Source of the DNA: a phage
Assembly: GCA_011911785.1 (NCBI GenBank)
Contig: GCA_011911785.1_4084.1
DNA: 64,000 nucleotides
Reading direction: 5' to 3' (one strand)
Shown: positions 2,659 to 51,734 of the stretch, piece after piece
How positions within the stretch are numbered: position 1 is the first letter of the stretch
How the letters are laid out: each line of letters opens with the position of its first letter
Program-made: the position numbers and the translations under genes
Notes under the pieces: model-generated
Databases searched by the model: none
Told to the model about the DNA's origin: nothing
What the model saw: only the letters and a program-made list of their open reading frames with translations

Positions 2659-2702
2659 AAGTTTTATCAACAGTAGTTAACTTAACCTAAGAGAGAAAGA
2701 AA

Positions 2703-2846
2703 ATGATCGCACTGGATTCATTCATCGAAGCAGTACTGGCAAAAACTGGCGAAGATCTGACCGCAGAACAATACGCAATGATCGAACAATGCCAGCAAGA
2801 CGGTAAATCGGTGAAAGATACTGTTAAGATTATCCGCAAGATGTAA
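2703..2846 (+). CDS. hypothetical small protein (47 aa)
   Basis: RBS AGAGAGAAAG; below track cutoff; followed by intrinsic terminator. Confidence 0.45.
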   Translation: MIALDSFIEAVLAKTGEDLTAEQYAMIEQCQQDGKSVKDTVKIIRKM

Positions 2847-2852
2847 GATTAT

Positions 2853-2883
2853 AGCCCACTGGTTAACGCTGGTGGGCTTTTTA
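2853..2883 (+). terminator. rho-independent terminator
   Basis: stem AGCCCAC/GTGGGCT followed by TTTTT. Confidence 0.65.
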
Positions 2884-2967
2884 GTATATACCTATCCGAT
2901 AGTACTACAAAATAGATTAGCTCGTTAGAATGCGTTTGAGAGCGTTTAAATAAGTACTAAAAAGTAA

Positions 2968-2995
2968 TTGACAGTACTGAAAGATAGTATATAAT
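2968..2995 (+). promoter_or_regulatory. sigma70-like promoter (TTGACA-N16-TATAAT)
   Basis: TTGACA 2968-2973 then AGTACTG; TATAAT 2990-2995. Confidence 0.55.
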
Positions 2996-3024
2996 ATTTT
3001 ATATCTTAACTGAGGATAGAAATC

Positions 3025-4306: not shown

Positions 4307-4314
4307 AAAAGTAC

Positions 4315-4371
4315 TTGTGAAGTACTTAGAATCAAGTATAATGTTTTACATAGAGAGGGGAATAGTTCCCC
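4315..4371 (+). promoter_or_regulatory. sigma70-like promoter (TTGTGA-N16-TATAAT) plus 5'UTR stem-loop (PeSL-like)
   Basis: TATAAT 4337-4342, hairpin GGGGAAtagTTCCCC 4357-4371. Confidence 0.55.
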
Positions 4372-4393
4372 TCCTAACAAAAAGGAAAGTAAC

Positions 4394-4567
4394 ATGATCC
4401 AAGTAGAATTGACAGTACTGAAAGATCTGTTTTATCGGATGGGTACTACTGGCGAATATCCGAAAGGTGATACCGCAAAACTTTACGTATCGCTGGATGT
4501 ATGGCAACGCGAACAATTAGCAACGGCCTGGCGTAAAGGCAAAGCAGATCGCGAGGTGCAAGCATGA
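4394..4567 (+). CDS. hypothetical small protein (57 aa)
   Basis: RBS AAGGAAAG; below track cutoff. Confidence 0.45.
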   Translation: MIQVELTVLKDLFYRMGTTGEYPKGDTAKLYVSLDVWQREQLATAWRKGKADREVQA

Positions 4568-4713
4568 AAGAATACTTATTCGAAGTTACATTTTTGGGGC
4601 AAGGTATGCACCAACTAGTAAGATCCAGCGGTTATAGTCTTAACCAGGCATGGAATAACTTAAAGAAAATGTACCCTAACGCTATCACATATCGCAACCC
4701 AAAAGAAGTTTAA
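4564..4713 (+). CDS. hypothetical small protein (49 aa)
   Basis: ATGA stop/start overlap with previous ORF. Confidence 0.4.
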   Translation: MKEYLFEVTFLGQGMHQLVRSSGYSLNQAWNNLKKMYPNAITYRNPKEV

Positions 4714-4727
4714 AAATAATTGAAAAA

Positions 4728-4806
4728 GGGATTGACTCCGGTCAGTCCCTTTGCTATTATATACGCATAGAAACAAATCAGCCCACAGGGTGCATAAATG
4801 TATCTA
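4728..4806 (+). promoter_or_regulatory. repeat copy 2 of 4: terminator hairpin fused to promoter (TTGACT-N17-TATTAT) plus conserved leader
   Basis: hairpin GGGATTGAC-tccg-GTCAGTCCC then TTT; TATTAT 4755-4760. Confidence 0.65.
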
Positions 4807-5669: not shown

Positions 5670-5993
5670 ATGGCTATGATCCTCACCCAGAAAGTAGAAC
5701 TGAAAATTGTAACCTCCTTTGACATTAAAGTTAATCGGTGGACTGATTCACACGGCAATACTTACCACTCTTGCTACGTGTCTGCTTTGATTGGTGATCG
5801 CTGGGAGGATTTAGGACATGAAACCTTTACTTACGGTTACGGCACACAAGGCGAATACACAGGCTTGGAGATCATTAAAGAAACCGTTATAGGTTTCAAC
5901 CCGAAAGAAAAAGTTATTCATCAAATAGAAAAAGAGATCAACAAAGAAATAACAGTTCGATACTACGATGTAAAACGTAAGAAAGACATGTAA
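5670..5993 (+). CDS. hypothetical protein (107 aa)
   Basis: track ORF 5625-5993 trimmed to ATG after RBS GAGAGAGA; upstream part is promoter/hairpin. Confidence 0.55.
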   Translation: MAMILTQKVELKIVTSFDIKVNRWTDSHGNTYHSCYVSALIGDRWEDLGHETFTYGYGTQGEYTGLEIIKETVIGFNPKEKVIHQIEKEINKEITVRYYDVKRKKDM

Positions 5994-6015
5994 TAGAATC
6001 CATTTAAAGTACTAT

Positions 6016-6044
6016 TTGACATTGCCCAGATAGTACTTTATAAT
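6016..6044 (+). promoter_or_regulatory. sigma70-like promoter (TTGACA-N17-TATAAT)
   Basis: TTGACA 6016-6021, TATAAT 6039-6044. Confidence 0.5.
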
Positions 6045-6092
6045 AGACTCTAGCTTGTAGTACTAATTAACTTAACTAATAGGATGTATACC

Positions 6093-6488
6093 ATGATTAC
6101 TAAATTCTACGCTACCCGTGAAGCTGCCCGTATTGTTGCACGCGAGGAAGGAGCAGCATTTAAAGACATGGGCACGACCGCACCGAAAGGCCAACGCTGG
6201 GCCGTACAGTTCAAAGAAATCTCTGATATTGTGCATTCACCTGAGCCAGTACTAACAGCAGCAGAACTAAAACGAGCGGATATGCTGGCGGCAGTACTTA
6301 ACGCACAAGATGAGTTTATCGCTGGTTCTGATATCAAAGTACAGGTAAATGCTAATGCATGGACTCACGCGGATCACCTGGCTAACCTGAAGCGTCCAAG
6401 TGAACTGGTTCGCAACCAAAAAGAGATCCGTCATGATCGTAAGGGTAATCGTGTAACAGTATACAGTAAACGCCGCCAGGTTATCTAA
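6093..6488 (+). CDS. hypothetical protein (131 aa)
   Basis: RBS AGGA then ATG 6093 (track starts 6084); followed by terminator. Confidence 0.6.
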   Translation: MITKFYATREAARIVAREEGAAFKDMGTTAPKGQRWAVQFKEISDIVHSPEPVLTAAELKRADMLAAVLNAQDEFIAGSDIKVQVNANAWTHADHLANLKRPSELVRNQKEIRHDRKGNRVTVYSKRRQVI

Positions 6489-6510
6489 TAACTTGCAGTA
6501 CTAACAACAC

Positions 6511-6536
6511 GGCGGGATCAGTTCCCGCCTTTTTTA
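6511..6536 (+). terminator. rho-independent terminator
   Basis: stem GGCGGGA/TCCCGCC followed by TTTTTT. Confidence 0.7.
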
Positions 6537-6550
6537 TAGGATAAACTAAA

Positions 6551-6805
6551 ATGATTAAGGTTCAACTATCAAAAGATAATATCTTGCGGGTACACTATAA
6601 AGCACCACAGAGAATCATCACAAAGGCCGTACAGCTTGCTAATGAGTTTATTAATGGTAATCTATTGCCCAGGAAGTTAAGCAACGGCAAACTGCGTGTA
6701 ATCGATGTAGACACTAACAACAGAATAGTAATCGAGAATACAGGAAAGATAAACCTATATGAACACCAACAATATAATAAGAAAATAAAACTAATATCAC
6801 GTTGA
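6551..6805 (+). CDS. hypothetical protein (84 aa)
   Basis: RBS AGGA upstream of ATG. Confidence 0.5.
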   Translation: MIKVQLSKDNILRVHYKAPQRIITKAVQLANEFINGNLLPRKLSNGKLRVIDVDTNNRIVIENTGKINLYEHQQYNKKIKLISR

Positions 6806-8024: not shown

Positions 8025-8038
8025 AAAAGATTAAAAAA

Positions 8039-8120
8039 GGGATTGACTCCAGTCAGTCCCTTTGCTATTATATAGTCATTGAGAGATAACTCACTGACCC
8101 ATAGGGTGCATAAGTGTATC
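8039..8120 (+). promoter_or_regulatory. repeat copy 3 of 4: terminator hairpin fused to promoter plus conserved leader
   Basis: hairpin GGGATTGAC-tcca-GTCAGTCCC then TTT; TATTAT 8066-8071. Confidence 0.65.
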
Positions 8121-8166
8121 TATAATATAAGTATTGTCAGTACTGAAAACTATTTTTAAAAAGTAC

Positions 8167-8229
8167 TTGCATTGTACTTAGATTCAAGTATAATGTTTTA
8201 CATAGAGAGGGGGAAATAGTTCTCCCTCA
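8167..8229 (+). promoter_or_regulatory. sigma70-like promoter (TTGCAT-N16-TATAAT) plus 5'UTR stem-loop (PeSL-like)
   Basis: AAGTAC-TTGCATT-GTACTT; TATAAT 8189-8194; G-rich hairpin. Confidence 0.6.
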
Positions 8230-8248
8230 AAGAATAAGGAATAAAATC

Positions 8249-9516: not shown

Positions 9517-9578
9517 TTGCATTGTAGTTAGATTAACGTATAATGTTTTATATCGAGAGGGGGAAATGGTTTCCCCTC
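9517..9578 (+). promoter_or_regulatory. sigma70-like promoter (TTGCAT-N16-TATAAT) plus 5'UTR stem-loop
   Basis: TATAAT 9539-9544; hairpin GAGGGGGAAAtggTTTCCCCTC. Confidence 0.6.
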
Positions 9579-9596
9579 AAGTCCAGGAGATACACC

Positions 9597-9863
9597 ATGA
9601 ACACTATCGAAATCACTATCAATGCTCACGTATACGACAACGTAGTACTGCAAACTACTATGACCGCTAACGATACCAGTACTTTGCGGAATACTGTTAT
9701 AAGTGCTGTATGTGCCGCTATCGGTGATGTATCCCTGGAAAACGCAGAACACATCAATAACGGTTTCACTATGTGCAAACGTGATAACGCAAAACATATC
9801 ATCGTAGAAGGTTACGGCGGTGTAGAATATAATCTTTATATGAAAAAAGTACTTGCATCGTAA
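9597..9863 (+). CDS. hypothetical protein (88 aa)
   Basis: track ORF 9543 trimmed to ATG after RBS AGGAGA. Confidence 0.55.
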   Translation: MNTIEITINAHVYDNVVLQTTMTANDTSTLRNTVISAVCAAIGDVSLENAEHINNGFTMCKRDNAKHIIVEGYGGVEYNLYMKKVLAS

Positions 9864-9909
9864 GTAAAACAAAGTATAATGTTTTGCATAGGGGGAGATA
9901 TCCTCCCCC
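9853..9909 (+). promoter_or_regulatory. sigma70-like promoter (TTGCAT-N16-TATAAT) plus 5'UTR stem-loop
   Basis: TATAAT 9875-9880; hairpin GGGGGAGatatCCTCCCCC. Confidence 0.6.
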
Positions 9910-9928
9910 ACTAATAAGGAGTACTACG

Positions 9929-10153
9929 ATGGCTAATCATGATGAACTGATTCGGGAAGTAGCTAACCTGGCGGCAGAAAAGAAATCATTTGATTCTATC
10001 TATAACACCGCTCACCGTGATTCAGTACTGGCATGTAATCAGGATCAAAAAGATGAACTGATCGCAACCTATCATGAAGCGTGGAAGTATTACCGTCAAT
10101 GGGAGAAAGAAGAAAAAGCATCAACCATAAGAGGATTAAATAATCTAGTATAA
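9929..10153 (+). CDS. hypothetical protein (74 aa)
   Basis: track ORF 9884 trimmed to ATG after RBS AAGGAG. Confidence 0.55.
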   Translation: MANHDELIREVANLAAEKKSFDSIYNTAHRDSVLACNQDQKDELIATYHEAWKYYRQWEKEEKASTIRGLNNLV

Positions 10154-10160
10154 CAATAAA

Positions 10161-10189
10161 AGGGGATGATAATATCCCCTTAATAATTT
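10161..10189 (+). terminator. putative intrinsic terminator
   Basis: stem AGGGGAT/ATCCCCT followed by an A/T-rich tract. Confidence 0.45.
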
Positions 10190-10205
10190 CTATAATAGGT
10201 TAACA

Positions 10206-10472
10206 ATGAAAAAGAAAACAACATATCGCTATAATAAAAATTATCAATCCGTTGTATTAGATCACTCTATGCTCCCGCTCGTTGTCCCTGCCGTTGGTGT
10301 AGTCTATCAATCCATATACTGGTCAAGGAAACAACAAAAGTACTTAAAAGGCCCAATAGCACGCTATGAGGGTAATGGTGTATGGTCCGATCCGTTACAT
10401 CCAATCACTACGCGTTATATTGAATATTTTCCTTATTGTGACTACATTGAAATACATCCTAAATTTAATTGA
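10206..10472 (+). CDS. hypothetical protein (88 aa), paralog of 10553-10810
   Basis: shared motif GNGxWxDPxxP...DYIE with the next ORF. Confidence 0.55.
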   Translation: MKKKTTYRYNKNYQSVVLDHSMLPLVVPAVGVVYQSIYWSRKQQKYLKGPIARYEGNGVWSDPLHPITTRYIEYFPYCDYIEIHPKFN

Positions 10473-10477
10473 TAGTA

Positions 10478-10531
10478 TTGACAGTACTAACTGATAGTGT
10501 ATAATGTTTTGCATAGGGGGAATACTCCCCC
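10478..10531 (+). promoter_or_regulatory. sigma70-like promoter plus 5'UTR stem-loop
   Basis: TTGACA 10478-10483, TATAAT 10500-10505, hairpin GGGGG-aatact-CCCCC. Confidence 0.6.
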
Positions 10532-10552
10532 AATATTAAAAGGGGAAACATC

Positions 10553-10810
10553 ATGGAACAATTCACACAATATCGGGTAAATCCTCAAGCTATGGCCTAC
10601 GTAGAAGACCATAAAACGTTACCAGTACTGCAACCAGTTAAAGGCCGTATCTATCGTGGCCTTGCATGGAATACGGCCCAGGATGGATATAAAACCGTTG
10701 CCGTGGGGATGTATTGCGGTAATGGTGAATGGTTTGATCCAAATAATCCGGTAGCTATTGACAGTACTGAAAAAATGAAATGGGCCGACTATATCGAGGA
10801 TATCTCATAA
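10553..10810 (+). CDS. hypothetical protein (85 aa), paralog of 10206-10472
   Basis: RBS AAGGGGAAA; shared motif CGNGEWFDPNNP. Confidence 0.55.
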   Translation: MEQFTQYRVNPQAMAYVEDHKTLPVLQPVKGRIYRGLAWNTAQDGYKTVAVGMYCGNGEWFDPNNPVAIDSTEKMKWADYIEDIS

Positions 10811-10816
10811 AACTAT

Positions 10817-10877
10817 TTGACAGTACTATCATATAGTGTATAATGTTTTACATAGAGCGGGGGAATAGTTCTCCCGC
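10817..10877 (+). promoter_or_regulatory. sigma70-like promoter plus 5'UTR stem-loop
   Basis: TTGACA 10817-10822, TATAAT 10839-10844, hairpin GCGGGGGAAtagTTCTCCCGC. Confidence 0.6.
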
Positions 10878-10899
10878 CAATAGTTTGGAGTAAAACATT

Positions 10900-11100
10900 A
10901 TGTCAATCGCTAACGAAATGATCGCAGTACTGAAAGAAGCTAAAGCCAACCTGATCGACGTAAAGATCCAGGAACTACAATCCGGCTTAATCGGCTGTAC
11001 TTGTACCGCTGGTGGGGCGACAGATTATCGTGAATTCGAATCACTCGAATCGATGGTTCGGTATCTTACAATGATCGTGGAAGATTGGAAGATCATCTAA
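10900..11100 (+). CDS. hypothetical protein (66 aa)
   Basis: RBS GGAG upstream. Confidence 0.55.
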   Translation: MSIANEMIAVLKEAKANLIDVKIQELQSGLIGCTCTAGGATDYREFESLESMVRYLTMIVEDWKII

Positions 11101-11118
11101 CAAAAAAGAATAAAAAAA

Positions 11119-11196
11119 GGGATTGACTCCGGTCAGTCCCTTTGCTATTATATACGCATAGACAAAAACTAGCCCACAGGGTGCATAAGTGTATCC
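11119..11196 (+). promoter_or_regulatory. repeat copy 4 of 4: terminator hairpin fused to promoter plus conserved leader
   Basis: hairpin GGGATTGAC-tccg-GTCAGTCCC then TTT; TATTAT 11146-11151. Confidence 0.65.
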
Positions 11197-11264
11197 AAAA
11201 TATATAGTTAATAACGGTGAGTAACTATCTGCTGGTGGAGTGAAAACTATTAATAAAAAAAGTA

Positions 11265-11293
11265 TTGACAAAGTATATCAGTACTGCAATAAT
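11265..11293 (+). promoter_or_regulatory. sigma70-like promoter (TTGACA-N17-AATAAT)
   Basis: TTGACA 11265-11270, AGTACTG, weaker -10. Confidence 0.45.
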
Positions 11294-11347
11294 GTATCTC
11301 GTAGGGCGGCAATGGTGCGACGGCCCACAAAGTTAGGAGATTCACAA

Positions 11348-11680
11348 ATGAGTACTTCAATCGCCATCGTTAATGCTTTCATCCGTACCAATGTTTCTTC
11401 TGTATTCATCGACGGACTGGATCGGGAAGTAGAATACTCAATCATTATCGCACAGACTGCAAACGGTGCTCGGTATATCCTCAATGATAGCGAAGCAAAT
11501 CACTACTACTACACTAAAGCTACTGGCTTTAAACGCATCGATGCGGACGTAGTATACGCTAAGATGAATAAGCTGGTAGACAAGATTAACGCTAAAGGTA
11601 CTATCGATTTACAGTACTGGACCGAAACCGATCCAGAATATGGATCTCACCGCTACCTGAATCCAGGTATTAAAATGTAA
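11348..11680 (+). CDS. hypothetical protein (110 aa)
   Basis: track ORF 11240 trimmed to ATG after RBS AGGAGA. Confidence 0.55.
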   Translation: MSTSIAIVNAFIRTNVSSVFIDGLDREVEYSIIIAQTANGARYILNDSEANHYYYTKATGFKRIDADVVYAKMNKLVDKINAKGTIDLQYWTETDPEYGSHRYLNPGIKM

Positions 11681-11687
11681 AAAGTAC

Positions 11688-11749
11688 TTGCATAGTACTT
11701 AGTAAAGTGTATAATGTTTTACATAGAGAGGGGGAAATGGTTCTCCCTC
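11688..11749 (+). promoter_or_regulatory. sigma70-like promoter (TTGCAT-N16-TATAAT) plus 5'UTR stem-loop
   Basis: TATAAT 11710-11715; G-rich hairpin 11728-11749. Confidence 0.6.
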
Positions 11750-11769
11750 CTAAATTAAGGAGTACTACC

Positions 11770-12171
11770 ATGACTTTCTCAATCACTTCCTACGCTGACG
11801 TTTTAGTACTGGCTCGGACTTTTGGTAAAGCTGGCATGGAGTATGCTGTAAACAATGGTCACATGCACCCTGAATATTGCCGCATCATTGGAAGCTGTAA
11901 ACGTTGGGCAACTAACAATACGATTGAACTGGAAAACTTCAATGATGGTAACAATGAATATACTGTTGATGCAGTATTTGAAGCCGTTGATCTCGGCGGT
12001 ATCTATAACACTAACCTGAATGATGTGCGTATCGTTCGCACGGGGTTCGGTGCTTATGATGTATCCATCCGTGAAGCTATGGACACGGGATACATTAGTA
12101 AGGACTTGCTCGCTTACATCATGCAGCAGACTAAGGAGCGTAACGAAGCACGCACTATCTTAGGACTGTAA
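11770..12171 (+). CDS. hypothetical protein (133 aa)
   Basis: track ORF 11707 trimmed to ATG after RBS AAGGAG. Confidence 0.6.
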   Translation: MTFSITSYADVLVLARTFGKAGMEYAVNNGHMHPEYCRIIGSCKRWATNNTIELENFNDGNNEYTVDAVFEAVDLGGIYNTNLNDVRIVRTGFGAYDVSIREAMDTGYISKDLLAYIMQQTKERNEARTILGL

Positions 12172-12195
12172 GCATTACACATCACCAAACATCAT

Positions 12196-12215
12196 AGGCC
12201 GCTCTCTAGCGGCCT
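12196..12215 (+). other. GC-rich hairpin (weak terminator candidate, no T-run)
   Basis: stem AGGCCGCT/AGCGGCCT. Confidence 0.3.
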
Positions 12216-12239
12216 TAACTATATCAGGAGTACACACAC

Positions 12240-12449
12240 ATGATCTATACAGTATACAGCGTTCTAGGTACTATTGCAGGCGTACATGATAACGTCGATG
12301 ATGCTATGCGTACAGTACTGCAACAGGTTCCACTAAAGCCTAAGACTATTAAGCAGATGACAGCACGACTAACCAGGGCAAAGGCTGGCGGTGAAGTCTG
12401 GCAGGACTACGCGGATACGCAGATTATCATTGCAGTAAGTAATGATTAA
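12240..12449 (+). CDS. hypothetical protein (69 aa)
   Basis: RBS AGGAG upstream. Confidence 0.55.
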   Translation: MIYTVYSVLGTIAGVHDNVDDAMRTVLQQVPLKPKTIKQMTARLTRAKAGGEVWQDYADTQIIIAVSND

Positions 12450-12492
12450 TGAATTAAATGATTCAGTACTAAAACTATTAGTCAGAAAATAA

Positions 12493-12527
12493 TCGGTGCA
12501 TTTTAAAAATGCATCGTTTTTTATTTT
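12493..12527 (+). terminator. rho-independent terminator
   Basis: palindrome TGCATTTT-A-AAAATGCA followed by TTTTTT. Confidence 0.6.
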
Positions 12528-12684
12528 AACCAGTACACTATAACGTATGAAATAGTTTCGACCTGTGATTATATTCTTAGGCAACTAGGGGCAGGTAATG
12601 CTTAGCTGCGTGTATAGGGGTTCATAGGTGGGACAAAATTGTTTCGTATGCTACAATCATAACAAATAACATAAGGAGAAACCA

Positions 12685-13107
12685 ATGATTAAATTTAAAG
12701 TTGATTATAATTCTAATATACAAATGGATGCAAATGTTCAATTTCCAAAAAACTTACTAAAAATGTCATTCAGTTATCATATACCATCGAATTCTATGTT
12801 GATTGATTGTGTTAATAAGAATGAAGATGTTATGCGTTCAAGTGTTTATTTCATAAGTGATGATTCTGAAATATTTAACATTGAATATTCAGATTATAAA
12901 GGTCAATTTGTTTTAGATACACCCAGTAACCAATATAAATTCAACATTCTTGATGTATCAAATACAGTAATTAGTTCGTTTGATGTGGGTAATTTATCTG
13001 TTCCACATGACAACGGTGTATCTGGGGATTTATATGAAAACACCATGCCATATACTAAACAAGAAAATATGAGTATTAACGATATATGTAATTATTTGAA
13101 AAAATAA
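12685..13107 (+). CDS. hypothetical protein (140 aa)
   Basis: RBS AAGGAGA upstream; AT-rich composition like the downstream arrays. Confidence 0.6.
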   Translation: MIKFKVDYNSNIQMDANVQFPKNLLKMSFSYHIPSNSMLIDCVNKNEDVMRSSVYFISDDSEIFNIEYSDYKGQFVLDTPSNQYKFNILDVSNTVISSFDVGNLSVPHDNGVSGDLYENTMPYTKQENMSINDICNYLKK

Positions 13108-14692: not shown

Positions 14693-14894
14693 TGGGTATG
14701 AATATTACAGGCTGTTGCGAACTATACAAGCAAAAGTTTCTAGTATTTCTTTAAACAAATCTATTGCACAAGTGGACAAATGTGTTATAATAACTGAAAT
14801 GAAGCTATCTATCTTCATTGGGACAAACTATCAAAGCATCTACACTGACGCATGGTTAGCAAGTCTACGTAACAAGGTGATATCCAGAGAATGA
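14679..14894 (+). CDS. LGTNYQ-family small protein (71 aa)
   Basis: motif FIGTNYQSIY. Confidence 0.6.
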   Translation: MKILSGYEYYRLLRTIQAKVSSISLNKSIAQVDKCVIITEMKLSIFIGTNYQSIYTDAWLASLRNKVISRE

Positions 14895-46993: not shown

Positions 46994-47467
46994 ATGGAGA
47001 TTAAAACTGTTGAAAACGGAAAGATTGATGACATTTTAGAGTTGGACGCTTTCAAAGTGCATGATATAATGTTTAACGTAAGAGACATTATCCAATGCCT
47101 TTTCTTGTGCAGCAAGTCAATGTATGAACATTTCCATTGCCCACGTACTAATATTTTTATACTAACTATCAGTACTGAAAACTCATTTATAATGGGTATA
47201 CCAATGAATACGAATGAAGAATATATTGATTGTGTTGTTCGTAATGATCCTTCTATCACACCACAGAGTGAAGTGCATAAGAAGAAAAATACATATACTA
47301 TTAAAGACGATAAAATTATGATGTGCGTTACCAAGGGTTTTCTACTTGACAACTTCATAATCAAAGATAGTTATCATGACTTTAAAGTATCTGAGAAGCA
47401 AGTCAACGTAGTTCTATATGCAAGTGATATCGAGAGCCTTACAGTGAAAGATCCAGACCTGGAGTAA
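46994..47467 (+). CDS. hypothetical protein (157 aa)
   Basis: RBS AAGGA; preferred over the overlapping hydrophobic minus-strand ORF. Confidence 0.55.
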   Translation: MEIKTVENGKIDDILELDAFKVHDIMFNVRDIIQCLFLCSKSMYEHFHCPRTNIFILTISTENSFIMGIPMNTNEEYIDCVVRNDPSITPQSEVHKKKNTYTIKDDKIMMCVTKGFLLDNFIIKDSYHDFKVSEKQVNVVLYASDIESLTVKDPDLE

Positions 47468-49296: not shown

Positions 49297-49605
49297 ATGG
49301 AAGACAACGGAATGAAATTTGATATGTTTGAAGGTGTACCAGAGTTTGATTTCAACAAGCTTGAAAATGGCGAAGAAGCAGAACTCGTAAGTGTTACCTT
49401 AAAATCGGATACTAAGAAGAAATACTCTTCAGCAGTTCGTGCTCGTTCACAAGAAGAATATGAAACGTTCATTGAAAGTATTCATTATGAAACAATGACT
49501 CGTGCAGATGGAAGTACTTATGAAGTTCGCGTTACAGTACTGAAACCTGAAGTTAATCCTCTTGAGAATTTGAAACCAGTCTACTGCTGGGGAACCTCAA
49601 ACTAA
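49297..49605 (+). CDS. hypothetical protein (102 aa)
   Basis: RBS AAGGAA; followed by terminator. Confidence 0.55.
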   Translation: MEDNGMKFDMFEGVPEFDFNKLENGEEAELVSVTLKSDTKKKYSSAVRARSQEEYETFIESIHYETMTRADGSTYEVRVTVLKPEVNPLENLKPVYCWGTSN

Positions 49606-49659: not shown

Positions 49660-50499
49660 ATGAAATTAAATTTTATTATCAACTTTAATGTTAAAGAAAC
49701 CGATCATTACGCATCAGAAGATGACCGTGTTGCACCAGCTTCGTCTGAATACATCAGAAATGAAAATGTCCATATGCATGAAAATTATTTCGACTTTGGT
49801 AATTTTATTATCTACCGTGGATTTAAGGATGTTGTATTCCGTTCCAGATATGAAGACTTTGAACATGCACTCGTTGATGTACCGGATGAATTAGTATTCC
49901 AGTTCATGTTACTTGGTATTAAAGATTATGACTTTATAGTTTATAACCATTATACTAAGCGTATTATGATTGGTAATGATTCATATGATCTTACTTATTA
50001 TTCCAGTACTGATGAAGATTTAGAAAATATTAAACGCCGTTCTGGTGGTATACGTAATTGTTCATCTTCAAACTCCAGTAGAATGAGTGAAAGGTTTTTT
50101 GATTTCAAAAATAGCAATAATAACGACTGTGAAGACGCGGACAATACTGAACATGTAATGTTTGAAATTGACCACAATAATGGATATAATGACTTCCTTA
50201 ATGTTCTGAAGCCTTATATCAATCATAAATTCATCAAAGATGTAAATCTGGTAGCTCGTGACTTACAGTACAGTGATCGTACTGGTGGTATGCCTGTACC
50301 AATGGATCGTGTATGTACGAACAATACAGTGTTTAATGTACCACGAGAAGATGTTGCATTTGTATTTCTGGCATTTTTGAATTCAGATGCACTATGGGAC
50401 GATAATGAAAGACAATTTAGTTCAAGACATATTGAAATAATTCGTCAAAACACACTACTTCTGTGGAAGAAATTTACTGAAAATACCCAGGACAAATAA
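49660..50499 (+). CDS. hypothetical protein (279 aa) with Asn/Ser-rich linker
   Basis: intact ORF; partial family-like segment DELVFQFMLLG. Confidence 0.55.
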   Translation: MKLNFIINFNVKETDHYASEDDRVAPASSEYIRNENVHMHENYFDFGNFIIYRGFKDVVFRSRYEDFEHALVDVPDELVFQFMLLGIKDYDFIVYNHYTKRIMIGNDSYDLTYYSSTDEDLENIKRRSGGIRNCSSSNSSRMSERFFDFKNSNNNDCEDADNTEHVMFEIDHNNGYNDFLNVLKPYINHKFIKDVNLVARDLQYSDRTGGMPVPMDRVCTNNTVFNVPREDVAFVFLAFLNSDALWDDNERQFSSRHIEIIRQNTLLLWKKFTENTQDK

Positions 50500-50519
50500 A
50501 TTCTTGGTGATATAATGAT

Positions 50520-50552
50520 GAGTGGCAATATATCTTTGTCACTCTTTTTTTT
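50520..50552 (+). terminator. rho-independent terminator
   Basis: 9-bp stem GAGTGGCAA/TTGTCACTC followed by T8. Confidence 0.7.
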
Positions 50553-51191
50553 AATCCTGAAAGGTTCCATATGGAAATGATTAAGAGCCTAATCCACTCG
50601 AAAATGTAGAGGGTAGATGAGTAGTCCTTTCAGTACGAACAGCAGATGAAACCCGTCAGATGTGGGCATATTATGAACCCCTCACGGCAATGCGGCTGTA
50701 TAAAGAACTCCGATAAGCACACAGAGAGTTCCTAGATAGACATATAAGGATCGCACCTTACCAGATTTGCTAAGGGAGATTTCATTAGAAATTGCGGTCA
50801 ACTATTTGTACAAGATAGTTGCGTCCAAAATTTGGTGAAATCAAATACCAGTACTGTTCATATGGTACTCGTATTATGTGTCGGGATGTTTAAGACCGAC
50901 GACCGTTGCTACAAGAACCGCGATAGAGAGAAACAGAGCAACCCGCTTTCGCCTCGTTAAGAGAATTCGTGATATGAAATATGTGAAGACCACCAGCGTC
51001 AAATTTTAATTCTTTCCCCCAGTGGGGGGATGAAATATGCTCTTCCAAACCTCGTCAATATTAATTAAAACCATTTAGTACTATTAGAATTATTCAGAGC
51101 GTAGCGATGAATTAATTCTACTGATGTTGATTGAGTGCTAACGAAATCAACATCGAGTACATTATTTGATGTTTCCTAAAAAGGAATAATA
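50553..51191. other. ORF-free, GC-richer intergenic island (candidate structured RNA or regulatory region)
   Basis: about 640 bp with no ORF of 60 codons or more on either strand; visibly less AT-rich than flanks; contains hairpin CCCCCAGTGGGGGG. Confidence 0.35.
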
Positions 51192-51734
51192 ATGCCTGTA
51201 TTTTCAAAGAACAAAACAACAGAGATCATTTATAAATCAAAAGAATTTGAAGTACTAGAAGAATTTGATAGAGATTCATTTGATGGATATAAAATAGTAA
51301 AAGAAAAAGGAACTATCAATCATATTGTTGAGTACATGGGAGGTGTAGAACTAGCAAAAATCACTTGTAGACCTACAAAAAACCCAGTAATTTTTTCTGT
51401 TCGCTATGGACATTACGGAGAAGAGCGATATAATTCTAATACAGTATCAAGGAAATTCCATGTTGTAGATGGGAAATTAGAAGGGGAATCCAGACAATAT
51501 AGTGTTCTTGGACTTCCTTTGTCAGTGAAGTACTTCCATCAAGGACATGATGTTACTATTGAAATTATGGATTTTATTGGGTTCAATGGTACAGTAGATG
51601 ACTTCAACTTCTATGTATTAGCAGAAGATGAAGCATTCAATATAATGATGAAGTACGGTTCTAGATTTAAATTTTTATATGAGTACAACCTGGACAGTAA
51701 ACTGTTCGATAATATCTTACAGAACTGTCTATAA
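51192..51734 (+). CDS. hypothetical protein (180 aa)
   Basis: RBS AAGGAA upstream. Confidence 0.6.
   Translation: MPVFSKNKTTEIIYKSKEFEVLEEFDRDSFDGYKIVKEKGTINHIVEYMGGVELAKITCRPTKNPVIFSVRYGHYGEERYNSNTVSRKFHVVDGKLEGESRQYSVLGLPLSVKYFHQGHDVTIEIMDFIGFNGTVDDFNFYVLAEDEAFNIMMKYGSRFKFLYEYNLDSKLFDNILQNCL

Follow-up and report, generated by a model that had tools for sequence, protein, structure and literature searches.

Few large RNAs combine an intricate fold with a conserved unpaired core, and those recognized are either ribozymes and ribonucleoprotein (RNP) cores, such as RNase P, introns and the ribosome, or long-standing puzzles such as OLE, GOLLD and ROOL. Among phages, phi29 and its podovirus relatives encode a structured, single-copy RNA of ~120-174 nt, the pRNA, which is virion-related and assembles into an oligomeric ring through loop-loop pairing. 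OLE, GOLLD and ROOL are several hundred nt long and combine many covarying helices with pseudoknots and conserved unpaired nucleotides; they are independent genes found on phages, prophages and mobile DNA, and their function is unassigned. One report describes all three as forming homo-oligomeric RNA-only complexes (PMC12286853). In the jumbo phage PA5oct, distantly related to the RaK2 group, RNA-seq revealed four intergenic RNAs devoid of open reading frames (ORFs), ncRNA001-004, of 236-619 nt, two of which are highly expressed (PMC7318152). Here we describe an element that resembles these RNAs, in a 64,000-nt stretch of phage DNA (NCBI GenBank assembly GCA_011911785.1, contig GCA_011911785.1_4084.1; hereafter the window). 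Positions ~50489-51060 on the + strand appear to form a stand-alone gene for a highly structured non-coding RNA of ~0.5 kb with its own promoter. In our judgement the case is evenly balanced that this is a stand-alone structured RNA gene whose folded RNA, rather than DNA or a protein, is the product and acts in trans as an RNP core or ribozyme-like RNA.

The element shares with ROOL, GOLLD and OLE the general features listed above, but has no sequence or structure match in Rfam 15. It also differs from them in being found in virulent RaK2-like phages of Enterobacterales and in chromosomal islands, and in occurring as four to five diverged, position-fixed paralogues per phage genome behind one conserved promoter. 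It is like the PA5oct RNAs in being an ORF-free intergenic element of a jumbo phage; an nhmmer comparison of ncRNA002 found no similarity to the family, and neither of two conserved 11-mers searched for was found in ncRNA004. The phi29 pRNA is comparable as a phage-encoded structured RNA, and no similarity between it and the RNA described here was detected.

The ORF-free gap, its relatives and their covariation

The original prediction, made from the letters of the window, picked out 50553-51191 as an ORF-free island, richer in GC than its surroundings, that followed a strong terminator. Its ORF-free character was borne out. From the stop of ORF 49660-50499 to the start of ORF 51192-51734, no frame holds an ORF of 60 codons or more, and this gap (50500-51191, 692 nt) is the longest in the window, the runner-up being 4307-4750 (444 nt). 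The GC excess is real (0.394 for 50553-51191 and 0.425 for the conserved core 50555-51060, versus 0.3425 for the whole window) but modest: the interval reaches only the 93rd percentile of 639-nt windows, and over its final ~130 nt (51060-51191) the AT content matches that of the flanks. The terminator exists as a hairpin at 50520-50544 followed by T8, but it lies 3' of the element's own -10 and therefore belongs to the unit instead of preceding it. The bounds also shift slightly, since the unit begins at the promoter (50489) and family-wide conservation stops at ~51058-51068. A GC hairpin noticed near 51017, CCCCCAGTGGGGGG, is present at 51016-29 and is the conserved family helix P13.

Over 50400-51300 the window is 99.3% identical to Escherichia phage A4 (ON286972.1), an Asteriusvirus jumbo phage of 355 kb, and the A4 record annotates nothing between genes A4_403 and A4_404. 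Sensitive BLASTN matched the interval to 62 phage records (62-72 over all searches), all of them RaK2-like jumbo phages, with hosts in Escherichia, Salmonella, Yersinia, Erwinia, Serratia, Cronobacter, Pectobacterium, Xanthomonas and Klebsiella. Beyond its own genus the identity is 65-74% and is limited to ~50588-51068 of the window, with four to five matching places per genome. Two rounds of motif scans in IMG/VR gave 54 loci, and nhmmer confirmed four to five copies, all on one strand, per complete genome of 350-370 kb. In RaK2 itself the copies number two and are diverged (E 1e-41). When genome and metagenome collections were scanned with gapped 19-nt patterns, most matches were due to chance (~130 expected, by estimate); among the matches listed, nhmmer confirmed 21 loci.

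The family is defined by the promoter TG(A/G)(A/G)AC-N17-TGnTATAAT, the sequence blocks CGGCAAUGCGGC, GAUAGACAUAU, AAGGGAG, GACCGU and GAAAC.G..CAACCCGC, a CCCC/GGGGGGAUGAA hairpin, a CAAAyCUCGUCA tail, and helices P1-P13 with the long-range pairings PK1-PK3. The window copy has every block, helix and the promoter, and scores 389 bits (E 1e-117, 50544-51065) against the family hidden Markov model; the window holds no second family copy and no long direct repeat. The locus, designated locus A, is thus one member of a conserved family of ~500-nt RNA genes and not a decayed gene.

The fold was assessed in an alignment of 33 non-identical copies, from which a 16-helix model including two pseudoknots (87 pairs) was read and then scored. 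Canonical pairs fill 93.6% of 2,622 cells, versus 35-44% when the 3' partners are slid by 1-3 columns. Compensatory changes on both sides occur in 60 of the 87 pairs (19-27 in the slid controls), the covariation score is 0.447 (0.06-0.12 in the controls), and none of 500 shuffles equalled the observed values on any of the five measures. G-U pairs are frequent in P9, P10 and P13 while their A-C equivalents are almost absent, an asymmetry indicating that the RNA is read from the + strand; in P13, U-G cells with almost no mismatches indicate pairing as RNA on that strand only. Folding of the single sequence is weak (z = -1.8 on the + strand and -0.6 on the - strand), so the structural case rests on covariation. 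Together, the conserved promoter, the covarying helices and long-range pairings and the strand-specific G-U pairs lend strong support to one candidate of the original prediction, a structured non-coding RNA.

No known family accounts for it. Rfam 15, a comparison that takes in group I and II introns, RNase P, tmRNA, 6S, ROOL, GOLLD, OLE, HEARO, hammerhead and riboswitches, gave 0 matches at gathering thresholds in the whole window; the intron, tmRNA and RNase P models, named at the outset as models to scan, were all negative. Relaxing the threshold to E<=10 on 50300-51400 returned only noise of 14-25 bits (terminator look-alikes, eukaryotic snoRNA and miRNA models), and at E<=5 on eight other copies nothing overlapped the RNA and no family recurred. 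ARAGORN found no tRNA or tmRNA gene in the window. No description of this RNA emerged from full-text searches of the literature, in which sequence strings were also queried. So far as Rfam 15 and the searchable literature show, the family has not been described.

Resemblances to the hammerhead, to RNase P CR-IV/V and to the group I P/Q/R/S strings were followed as leads and rejected. For the hammerhead, suggested by xAGAUGAG...stem...CGAA, many copies have GUUGAG in place of GAUGAG, with a U where the CUGANGA core has A6; of the 'GAAA' only GA is there, the next base being variable and paired in P3, and Rfam gave no hammerhead match. The G.A/A.G pairs beside PK3 are kept, which makes the resemblance local only. 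The group I-like strings stand in the wrong order, the helices do not map onto P3-P9 and there is no Rfam match; moreover, an element that lies between complete ORFs and has its own promoter is not an intron. The RNase P lead came from AGAUGA... and ACAGNNCAACCCGCUU strings, but the CAACCCG lies in the P10 loop and its CAAC pairs with a GUUG 30 nt upstream (PK2) and not with a CR-I-like strand; the RNase P models matched none of the copies scanned. A small ORF or leader peptide starting from GGGGGGAUGAAAAUG was likewise rejected, as neither AUGs nor frame are conserved.

Predicted promoter, fold and ends

The promoter ahead of the RNA (Table 1) is, by its predicted elements, a sigma70-type promoter with an extended -10, of a phage class that can be written TGAAAC-N17-TGnTATAAT, and would start transcription at ~50522-24. 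All 32 distinct family copies have TG(A/G)(A/G)AC exactly 17 nt ahead of TATAAT, together with the TG of the extended -10, and the GenBank record of fHe-Yen9-03 annotates a -10 signal at a homologous copy. In the window the same class precedes protein genes at 47062, 48816, 56569 and 60438, and looks like a phage-specific, middle-type set. A further box of this kind ((T/C)GGAC(A)-like, ~16-17 nt, TGnTATAAT) is seen at 14783. By sequence, the promoter of the RNA is the equivalent of the TGAAACG promoter called 'divergent RpoD-like' in the CBB genome paper, where it is associated with DNA-synthesis genes (PMC5259590). The 5' hairpin that follows it is optional in the family: it is present in locus A and C copies and missing from loci B, D and E.

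Comparison of the copies shows a predicted fold of two domains, with ~16 helices and long-range pairings of which three (PK1-PK3) covary and a fourth, PK4, is tentative. The best-supported helices are P1, P3, P4, P8, P9 and P10. Conserved and apparently unpaired sequence adds up to ~100 nt, in GAAAAUGUA, AGAUGAG, CAAUGCG, AUAAAG, GAUAGACAUAU, AAGGGAG, GACCG, AAAC.G..CAACCCG and the tail CAAAyCUCGUCA. In the 5' part, PK3 is flanked by G.A/A.G (50619-20/50637-38) in columns invariant in 29-31 of the 33 sequences. The P3/P3a region (50639..50699) contains the conserved strands AGAUGAAAC and CACGGCAAUGCGGC, and its block CGGCAATGCGGC is invariant in 33/33 sequences. The proposed PK4 pairs GATGCAT/ATGCATC, GATACTAC/GTAGTATC, GATAAC/GTTATC, GTGCA/TGCAC or GCATAC/GTATGC in different paralogues, and is the weakest element because shuffle tests of single sequences were not significant. 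By analogy with the homo-oligomeric RNAs, loop-to-strand pairings such as PK1 and PK4 could equally be intermolecular.

After AAGGGAG, copies of loci A, B and E have a long hairpin, while those of loci C and D have a similar one within P11 (columns 553-593), and an Escherichia coli island copy described below has it in both places; by eye, it is as if one peripheral module had two alternative sites. PK1 is realized as UUCAUAU/AUAUGAA, AUUGUAU/AUACAAU or GUCGAAU/AUUCGAC according to paralogue. The 3' domain is the best-kept part of the diverged RaK2 homologue. P12 is nearly invariant and so has no covariation support. Directly after it, loci C, D and E and the chromosomal copies have an inserted hairpin resembling an intrinsic terminator, followed by U6-9; loci A and B have none, and the window copy has an AU-rich linker (51001-09) instead.

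The conserved tail is followed by an AT-rich trailer with a hairpin GUUGAUU...AAUCAAC at 51134-51155. Megablast matches to Asteriusvirus end at ~51131 and a distant search reaches ~51190, with other genera ending at ~51068. A terminator scan of 51059-51191 found no convincing terminator. Four further pairings were considered and dropped: GAUGAG (50616-21) with CUCGUC (51051-56), whose variation is uncompensated; GAUAG with the P12 loop CUAUC, which fails in the window copy; long-range GAC/GUC and GG/CC pairs from RNAalifold, which are invariant and hence unsupported; and an alternative helix CCUUA/UAAGG, which conflicts with the covariation of P5.

Table 1. Predicted parts of the RNA gene at locus A, 5' to 3', in window positions
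Feature	Position	Strand	Observations
Promoter	50489..50516	+	-35-like AGGACA 50489-94; spacer 16-17 nt; extended -10 TGATATAAT 50508-16; scan score 10/12 with TG
5' hairpin GAGTGGCA...TGTCACTC (50520-50544) + U8	50520..50552	+	terminator scan; terminator-like for upstream ORF ending 50499
5' domain part I	50555..50638	+	P1, P1a, P2, PK3
P1	50557-64/50626-33	+	96.9% paired; 4/8 pairs compensatory
P1a	50565-68/50573-76	+	4/4 compensatory
P2	50589-99/50609-16	+	6/8 compensatory; conserved loop GAAAAUGUA 50600-08
PK3	50621-23/50634-36	+	100% paired; middle pair UA 22 / AU 8 / CG 3; loop is 3' strand of P1
P3	50639-43/50695-99	+	100% paired; 3 compensatory pairs, e.g. GC 20 / CG 12
P3a	50653-56/50684-87	+	100% paired; encloses variable hairpin
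P4 hairpin	50705-10/50726-31	+	94.9% paired; 6/6 compensatory, up to 4 pair types per position
Invariant block GAUAGACAUAU	50735-45	+	alignment
P5	50746-49/50756-59	+	variants UAAGG/CCUUA, UAGG/CCUA, UGAG/CUCA; 75.8% paired (rough alignment)
Conserved AAGGGAG	50772-78	+	alignment
PK4 (proposed)	P5 loop GAUCGCA 50749-55 / UGCGGUC 50793-99	+	partners vary by paralogue yet stay complementary
Peripheral long hairpin module	50788..50834	+	outer arms AAAUU/AAUUU; inner stem CAACUAUUU/AAGAUAGUUG; loop GUACA
3' domain	50844..50978	+	P7-P11, PK1, PK2
P7	50844-55/50864-75	+	loop 50857-63 engaged in PK1
PK1	P7 loop 50857-63 / 50972-78	+	5/7 compensatory
P8	50880-84/50896-50900	+	5/5 compensatory
PK2	50905-09 / 50938-42 (P10 loop)	+	100% paired; 3 compensatory
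P9	50919-23/50967-71	+	100% paired; 4 compensatory
P10	50926-30/50946-50	+	100% paired; 4 compensatory; conserved loop AAACAGAGCAACCCG
P11	50953-55/50961-63	+	alignment
P12 hairpin GAC/GUC	50988..51000	+	94.9% paired; loop CACCAGC here, consensus CUAUCAU; then CGUCA(A/G)
P13 hairpin UUCUUUCCCCC-AGU-GGGGGGAUGAA	51010-20/51024-34	+	upper stem 98.8% paired; 42 U-G cells, 2 mismatched cells
Conserved tail ...CAAACCUCGUCAA	to 51058	+	kept in all copies, including Klebsiella deletion remnant; end of family-wide conservation
AT-rich trailer	51059..51191	+	up to next start codon (51192); conserved within Asteriusvirus only

Copies in jumbo phages and bacterial islands

Synteny of the flanking proteins sorts the phage copies into five orthologous loci, A-E. 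The flanks of different loci are not homologous, indicating that the RNA was duplicated alone, before the genera split. In complete RaK2-like genomes the paralogues lie on one strand throughout, at fixed sites dispersed 44-86 kb from each other: at 24.5, 93.3, 174.3, 260.4 and 334.7 kb in Yen9-04 (354.4 kb), at 30.3, 93.0, 174.5, 258.8 and 335.3 kb in Serratia BF (357.2 kb), at 32.3, 94.3, 174.4, 258.1 and 336.3 kb in CBB (378.4 kb), and at 43, 129, 214, 297 and 359 kb in IMG/VR contig 3300042256_000013 (371 kb). By our own, post hoc calculation, five points placed at random on a circle would show so large a smallest gap with a probability of ~0.005-0.02. The Asteriusvirus 121Q (348.5 kb) has four copies, at 90.3, 193.0, 247.5 and 326.6 kb. 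In A4 (355.5 kb) copies are found at 65.1 kb (the window copy), 125.7 and 321.0 kb, and by analogy with 121Q a fourth should lie near 199 kb. Comparison with related phage genomes thus finds the island conserved, multicopy and at stable syntenic positions; this stability across genera means that the RNA has not been recently mobile within phage genomes.

At locus A, a ~270-aa protein is encoded upstream, and downstream lie genes for a ~175-aa protein, a Dam methylase (PF05869) and a product annotated as cytidyltransferase in phage records. The two ~279-aa ORFs upstream of the window copy are not paralogues of each other. Across the loci the flanking proteins (Dam methylase, N6/N4 methylase, ADP-ribosylglycohydrolase, DUF7325, otherwise unknowns) gave no functional clue. 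In most copies a co-oriented gene starts 15-160 nt 3' of the RNA. The 121Q locus E copy, on the + strand, instead lies between two - strand genes. Small HNH endonuclease genes are seen near some copies, two of them up to 4 kb upstream of the window RNA gene (~47.0-47.4 kb and 49297-49605; A4_397 and A4_402) and one 0.5 kb downstream of the 90-kb copy of 121Q. In both RaK2 (190390-192896 region) and 121Q (86766-94316 region), one RNA copy lies directly 3' of a gene for a phage RNA polymerase sigma factor.

Copies are also found in bacterial chromosomes. Two of 5,426 complete E. coli genomes have a full-length copy (412 bits), preceded by the family promoter (TGGGAT-N17-TGTGATATAAT). The copy lies between ffs and ybaA in an island of ~10 kb whose other genes encode an integrase split by IS3, membrane proteins, unassigned proteins, two candidate defence systems, PDC-M45 (DuOB, DUF488, mSLOG/DUF4326) and PDC-S16, and a resolvase. 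This copy is a distinct lineage, with 77.6% identity to the nearest phage copy, a locus E member. Citrobacter amalonaticus, together with a near-identical metagenome contig, has a full-length copy, again behind the family promoter, directly after a serine recombinase gene and beside a CI/Cro-like switch, and Serratia sp. L9 has a partial copy directly after a serine recombinase gene. The copy in an Enterobacteriaceae metagenome-assembled genome (MAG) and a CI-like repressor gene are convergent, and nothing co-oriented follows this copy. From this distribution, the RNA is shown to be a module that evidently can be duplicated alone and can move between jumbo phages and chromosomal islands. No plasmid carrying the RNA was found.

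A 118-aa protein encoded in the island marks a widespread Enterobacterales island family, and islands at the ffs site also occur in Klebsiella pneumoniae and Yersinia enterocolitica. The K. pneumoniae island keeps the promoter, ~45 nt, the terminator hairpin, a degenerate P13 and the tail, upstream of an operon; with only the ends of the RNA kept, this is a deletion derivative. In the Y. enterocolitica island, the stretch that follows the integrase was read and showed no recognizable family motif. The ffs-ybaA islands are 8-12 kb long and consist of an integrase, a CI/Cro-like switch, the conserved 118-aa protein, variable defence cargo (a SMODS protein; PDC-M45 DuOB/DUF488/mSLOG; PDC-S16) and a resolvase, a layout that resembles a phage satellite or a mobile defence island. 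In the E. coli LR-29-1 island, a ~700-nt non-coding stretch (9546-10256) 3' of the RNA copy has three iteron-like repeats TTATCGATCG around 9981-10020 and may serve the island as an operator or origin. The Klebsiella and Yersinia islands share a near-identical non-coding block of ~280 nt, rich in GTAC repeats, right after the integrase (5960-6240 and 6350-6630); candidate roles for it are those of an att region, a regulatory region or a further RNA.

Candidate roles of the RNA and wider observations

The RNA may act in trans during infection, as an RNP core or a ribozyme-like RNA, in conflict between phage and host or between phage and island. That the folded RNA is the product and works in this way has, in our estimate, at best an even chance and perhaps slightly less. 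Its autonomy from its neighbours points in this direction: the copy at 121Q locus E sits between - strand genes, the MAG copy faces a CI-like gene, and the island copies stand beside integrase or recombinase genes. A more specific proposal, which we advance tentatively and hold to be somewhat doubtful, is that the family is a new class of large RNA, a ribozyme or RNP core that RaK2-like phages need in five specialised versions, evenly dispersed, and that islands, possibly satellites, have captured together with the promoter as a means of sensing, mimicking or sabotaging the phage. If true, this would bring a new RNA player into the conflict of phage, host and satellite.

Several points weigh against a trans-acting product. 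The promoter, like both ends of the RNA, is a prediction, and the covariation is gauged by shuffles and slid controls only. The conserved part of the window copy has no terminator behind it, and the RNA may be made as the leading portion of the mRNA for gene 51192-51734. The analysis turned up no protein partner, no substrate and no catalytic motif. The long retention of five paralogues, each tied to its place and all evenly spread, is also easier to explain by a location-bound role, in cis, than by a purely trans one.

The main rival is accordingly a co-transcriptional role in cis, which we consider unlikely, though less so than the other alternatives. Each copy would head a transcription unit as a leader that acts on its own RNA polymerase, or on the terminator and P13, and switches on the downstream genes by antitermination or attenuation, as in HK022 put or EAR. 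The HK022 putL/putR, EAR and lambda nut RNAs are similar in that several paralogous copies per phage, with conserved structure, lie just 3' of a promoter and 5' of terminators; put-type RNAs also occur in temperate elements near the immunity region. A leader fits the constant position of the RNA immediately 3' of the conserved promoter, the terminator-like hairpin and U-run inside the unit, before P13 and the tail, at loci C, D and E and in the islands, and the co-oriented gene that closely trails most copies; the last two of these also count against a trans role. It fits, too, the spacing of position-specific paralogues every 44-86 kb in genomes transcribed almost wholly one way, and the Klebsiella island, where the promoter, terminator, P13 and tail outlasted the body of the RNA upstream of an operon. 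However, put (~70 nt) and EAR (~120 nt) are simple stem-loops, whereas the RNA here, at ~500 nt and with multiple long-range pairings, is several times that size. The downstream genes are unrelated between loci, and the 121Q locus E and MAG copies have no co-oriented downstream gene at all. Loci A and B, the window copy included, have no internal terminator, and the Shine-Dalgarno-like GGGGGGA-AUG in the tail heads no conserved ORF.

A role in replication, also among the first candidates for the island, appears more improbable still. The transcript would form a persistent R-loop near the G6/C-rich P13-tail region and prime the leading strand in the style of ColE1 RNA II or T4 oriF/oriG, making the five copies origins of the 350-kb genome. 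Those systems share with this family a promoter-driven transcript of ~0.5 kb in which folding matters and G-rich segments lie ~250 nt apart; here AAGGGAG is ~250 nt upstream of the G6 run, and in ColE1 the G-run/C-run pair is at -265/-20. Like the T4 origins, the RNA has a middle-type promoter in a T4-related phage and several dispersed copies per genome, and the replisome of RaK2-like phages is of T4 type. The regular spacing of four to five copies on one strand, as in Yen9-04, the single copies in small integrative islands, possibly satellites, and the tie of the promoter class to DNA-synthesis genes in CBB (PMC5259590) agree with such a role. Against it, the copies share no conserved AT-rich unwinding element and no conserved iterons, and there is no sign of an R-loop, an RNase H site or an antisense regulator. 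Cumulative GC skew rises monotonically through the locus without inflection, a weak test for a phage. The order and spacing of copies differ in Asteriusvirus (90, 193, 247 and 327 kb in 121Q), and the Klebsiella islands persist without the RNA body. The pattern of conservation is that of a globular RNA, and we know of no primer RNA that needs a globular fold with multiple pseudoknots and ~100 conserved unpaired nt.

Readings as a decayed or mis-sequenced protein gene, a relic of a mobile element or intron, or a DNA-level packaging or recombination site are essentially excluded: small hypothetical ORFs are annotated over homologous regions (121Q gene 416; Yen9-04 g047/g048, g159/g160, g347/g348) and HNH endonuclease genes lie nearby, but those ORFs disagree in position and frame between genomes, insertions and deletions do not come in threes, no ORF in 44 copies exceeds 89 aa, all 44 share the same ~500-nt architecture where the original prediction had considered the remnant of an excised element, an intron relic is at odds with the complete ORFs on either side, the separate promoter and the lack of any match to Rfam intron or ribozyme models, compensatory changes and strand-specific G-U pairs are not expected of a protein gene or a DNA site, and a packaging signal found no support.

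A trans-acting structured RNA would be open to experiment in a tractable system. Functional experiments are feasible because the phages infect E. coli: A4, 121Q, PBECO4 and phAPEC6 are culturable and amenable to genetics. Up to five natural variants per genome are on hand, in addition to the chromosomal-island versions and a natural deletion derivative. Knock-down by antisense oligomers is reported for phages, jumbo phages among them (PMC12571901). Should the dispersed layout reflect origins or the control of transcription domains, it would also matter for understanding how phages replicate or transcribe genomes of 350 kb. The family also calls for a correction of annotation, as dozens of GenBank records of jumbo phages leave gaps of ~0.7 kb empty or fill them with spurious small ORFs; the small 'hypothetical protein' ORFs over the RNA genes of 121Q (gene 416), Yen9-04 (the pairs listed above) and the SD-series Salmonella phages are very likely spurious.

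Other ORF-free stretches, of 224-444 nt, occur in the small-gene, early-looking part of the window (4307-4750, 2671-3024, 1118-1409 and 8025-8248), and none of these four has an Rfam or tRNA match. The GC maximum of the window is at 10236-12715, peaking at 11784 (0.46 over 639 nt), above the value of the RNA island.

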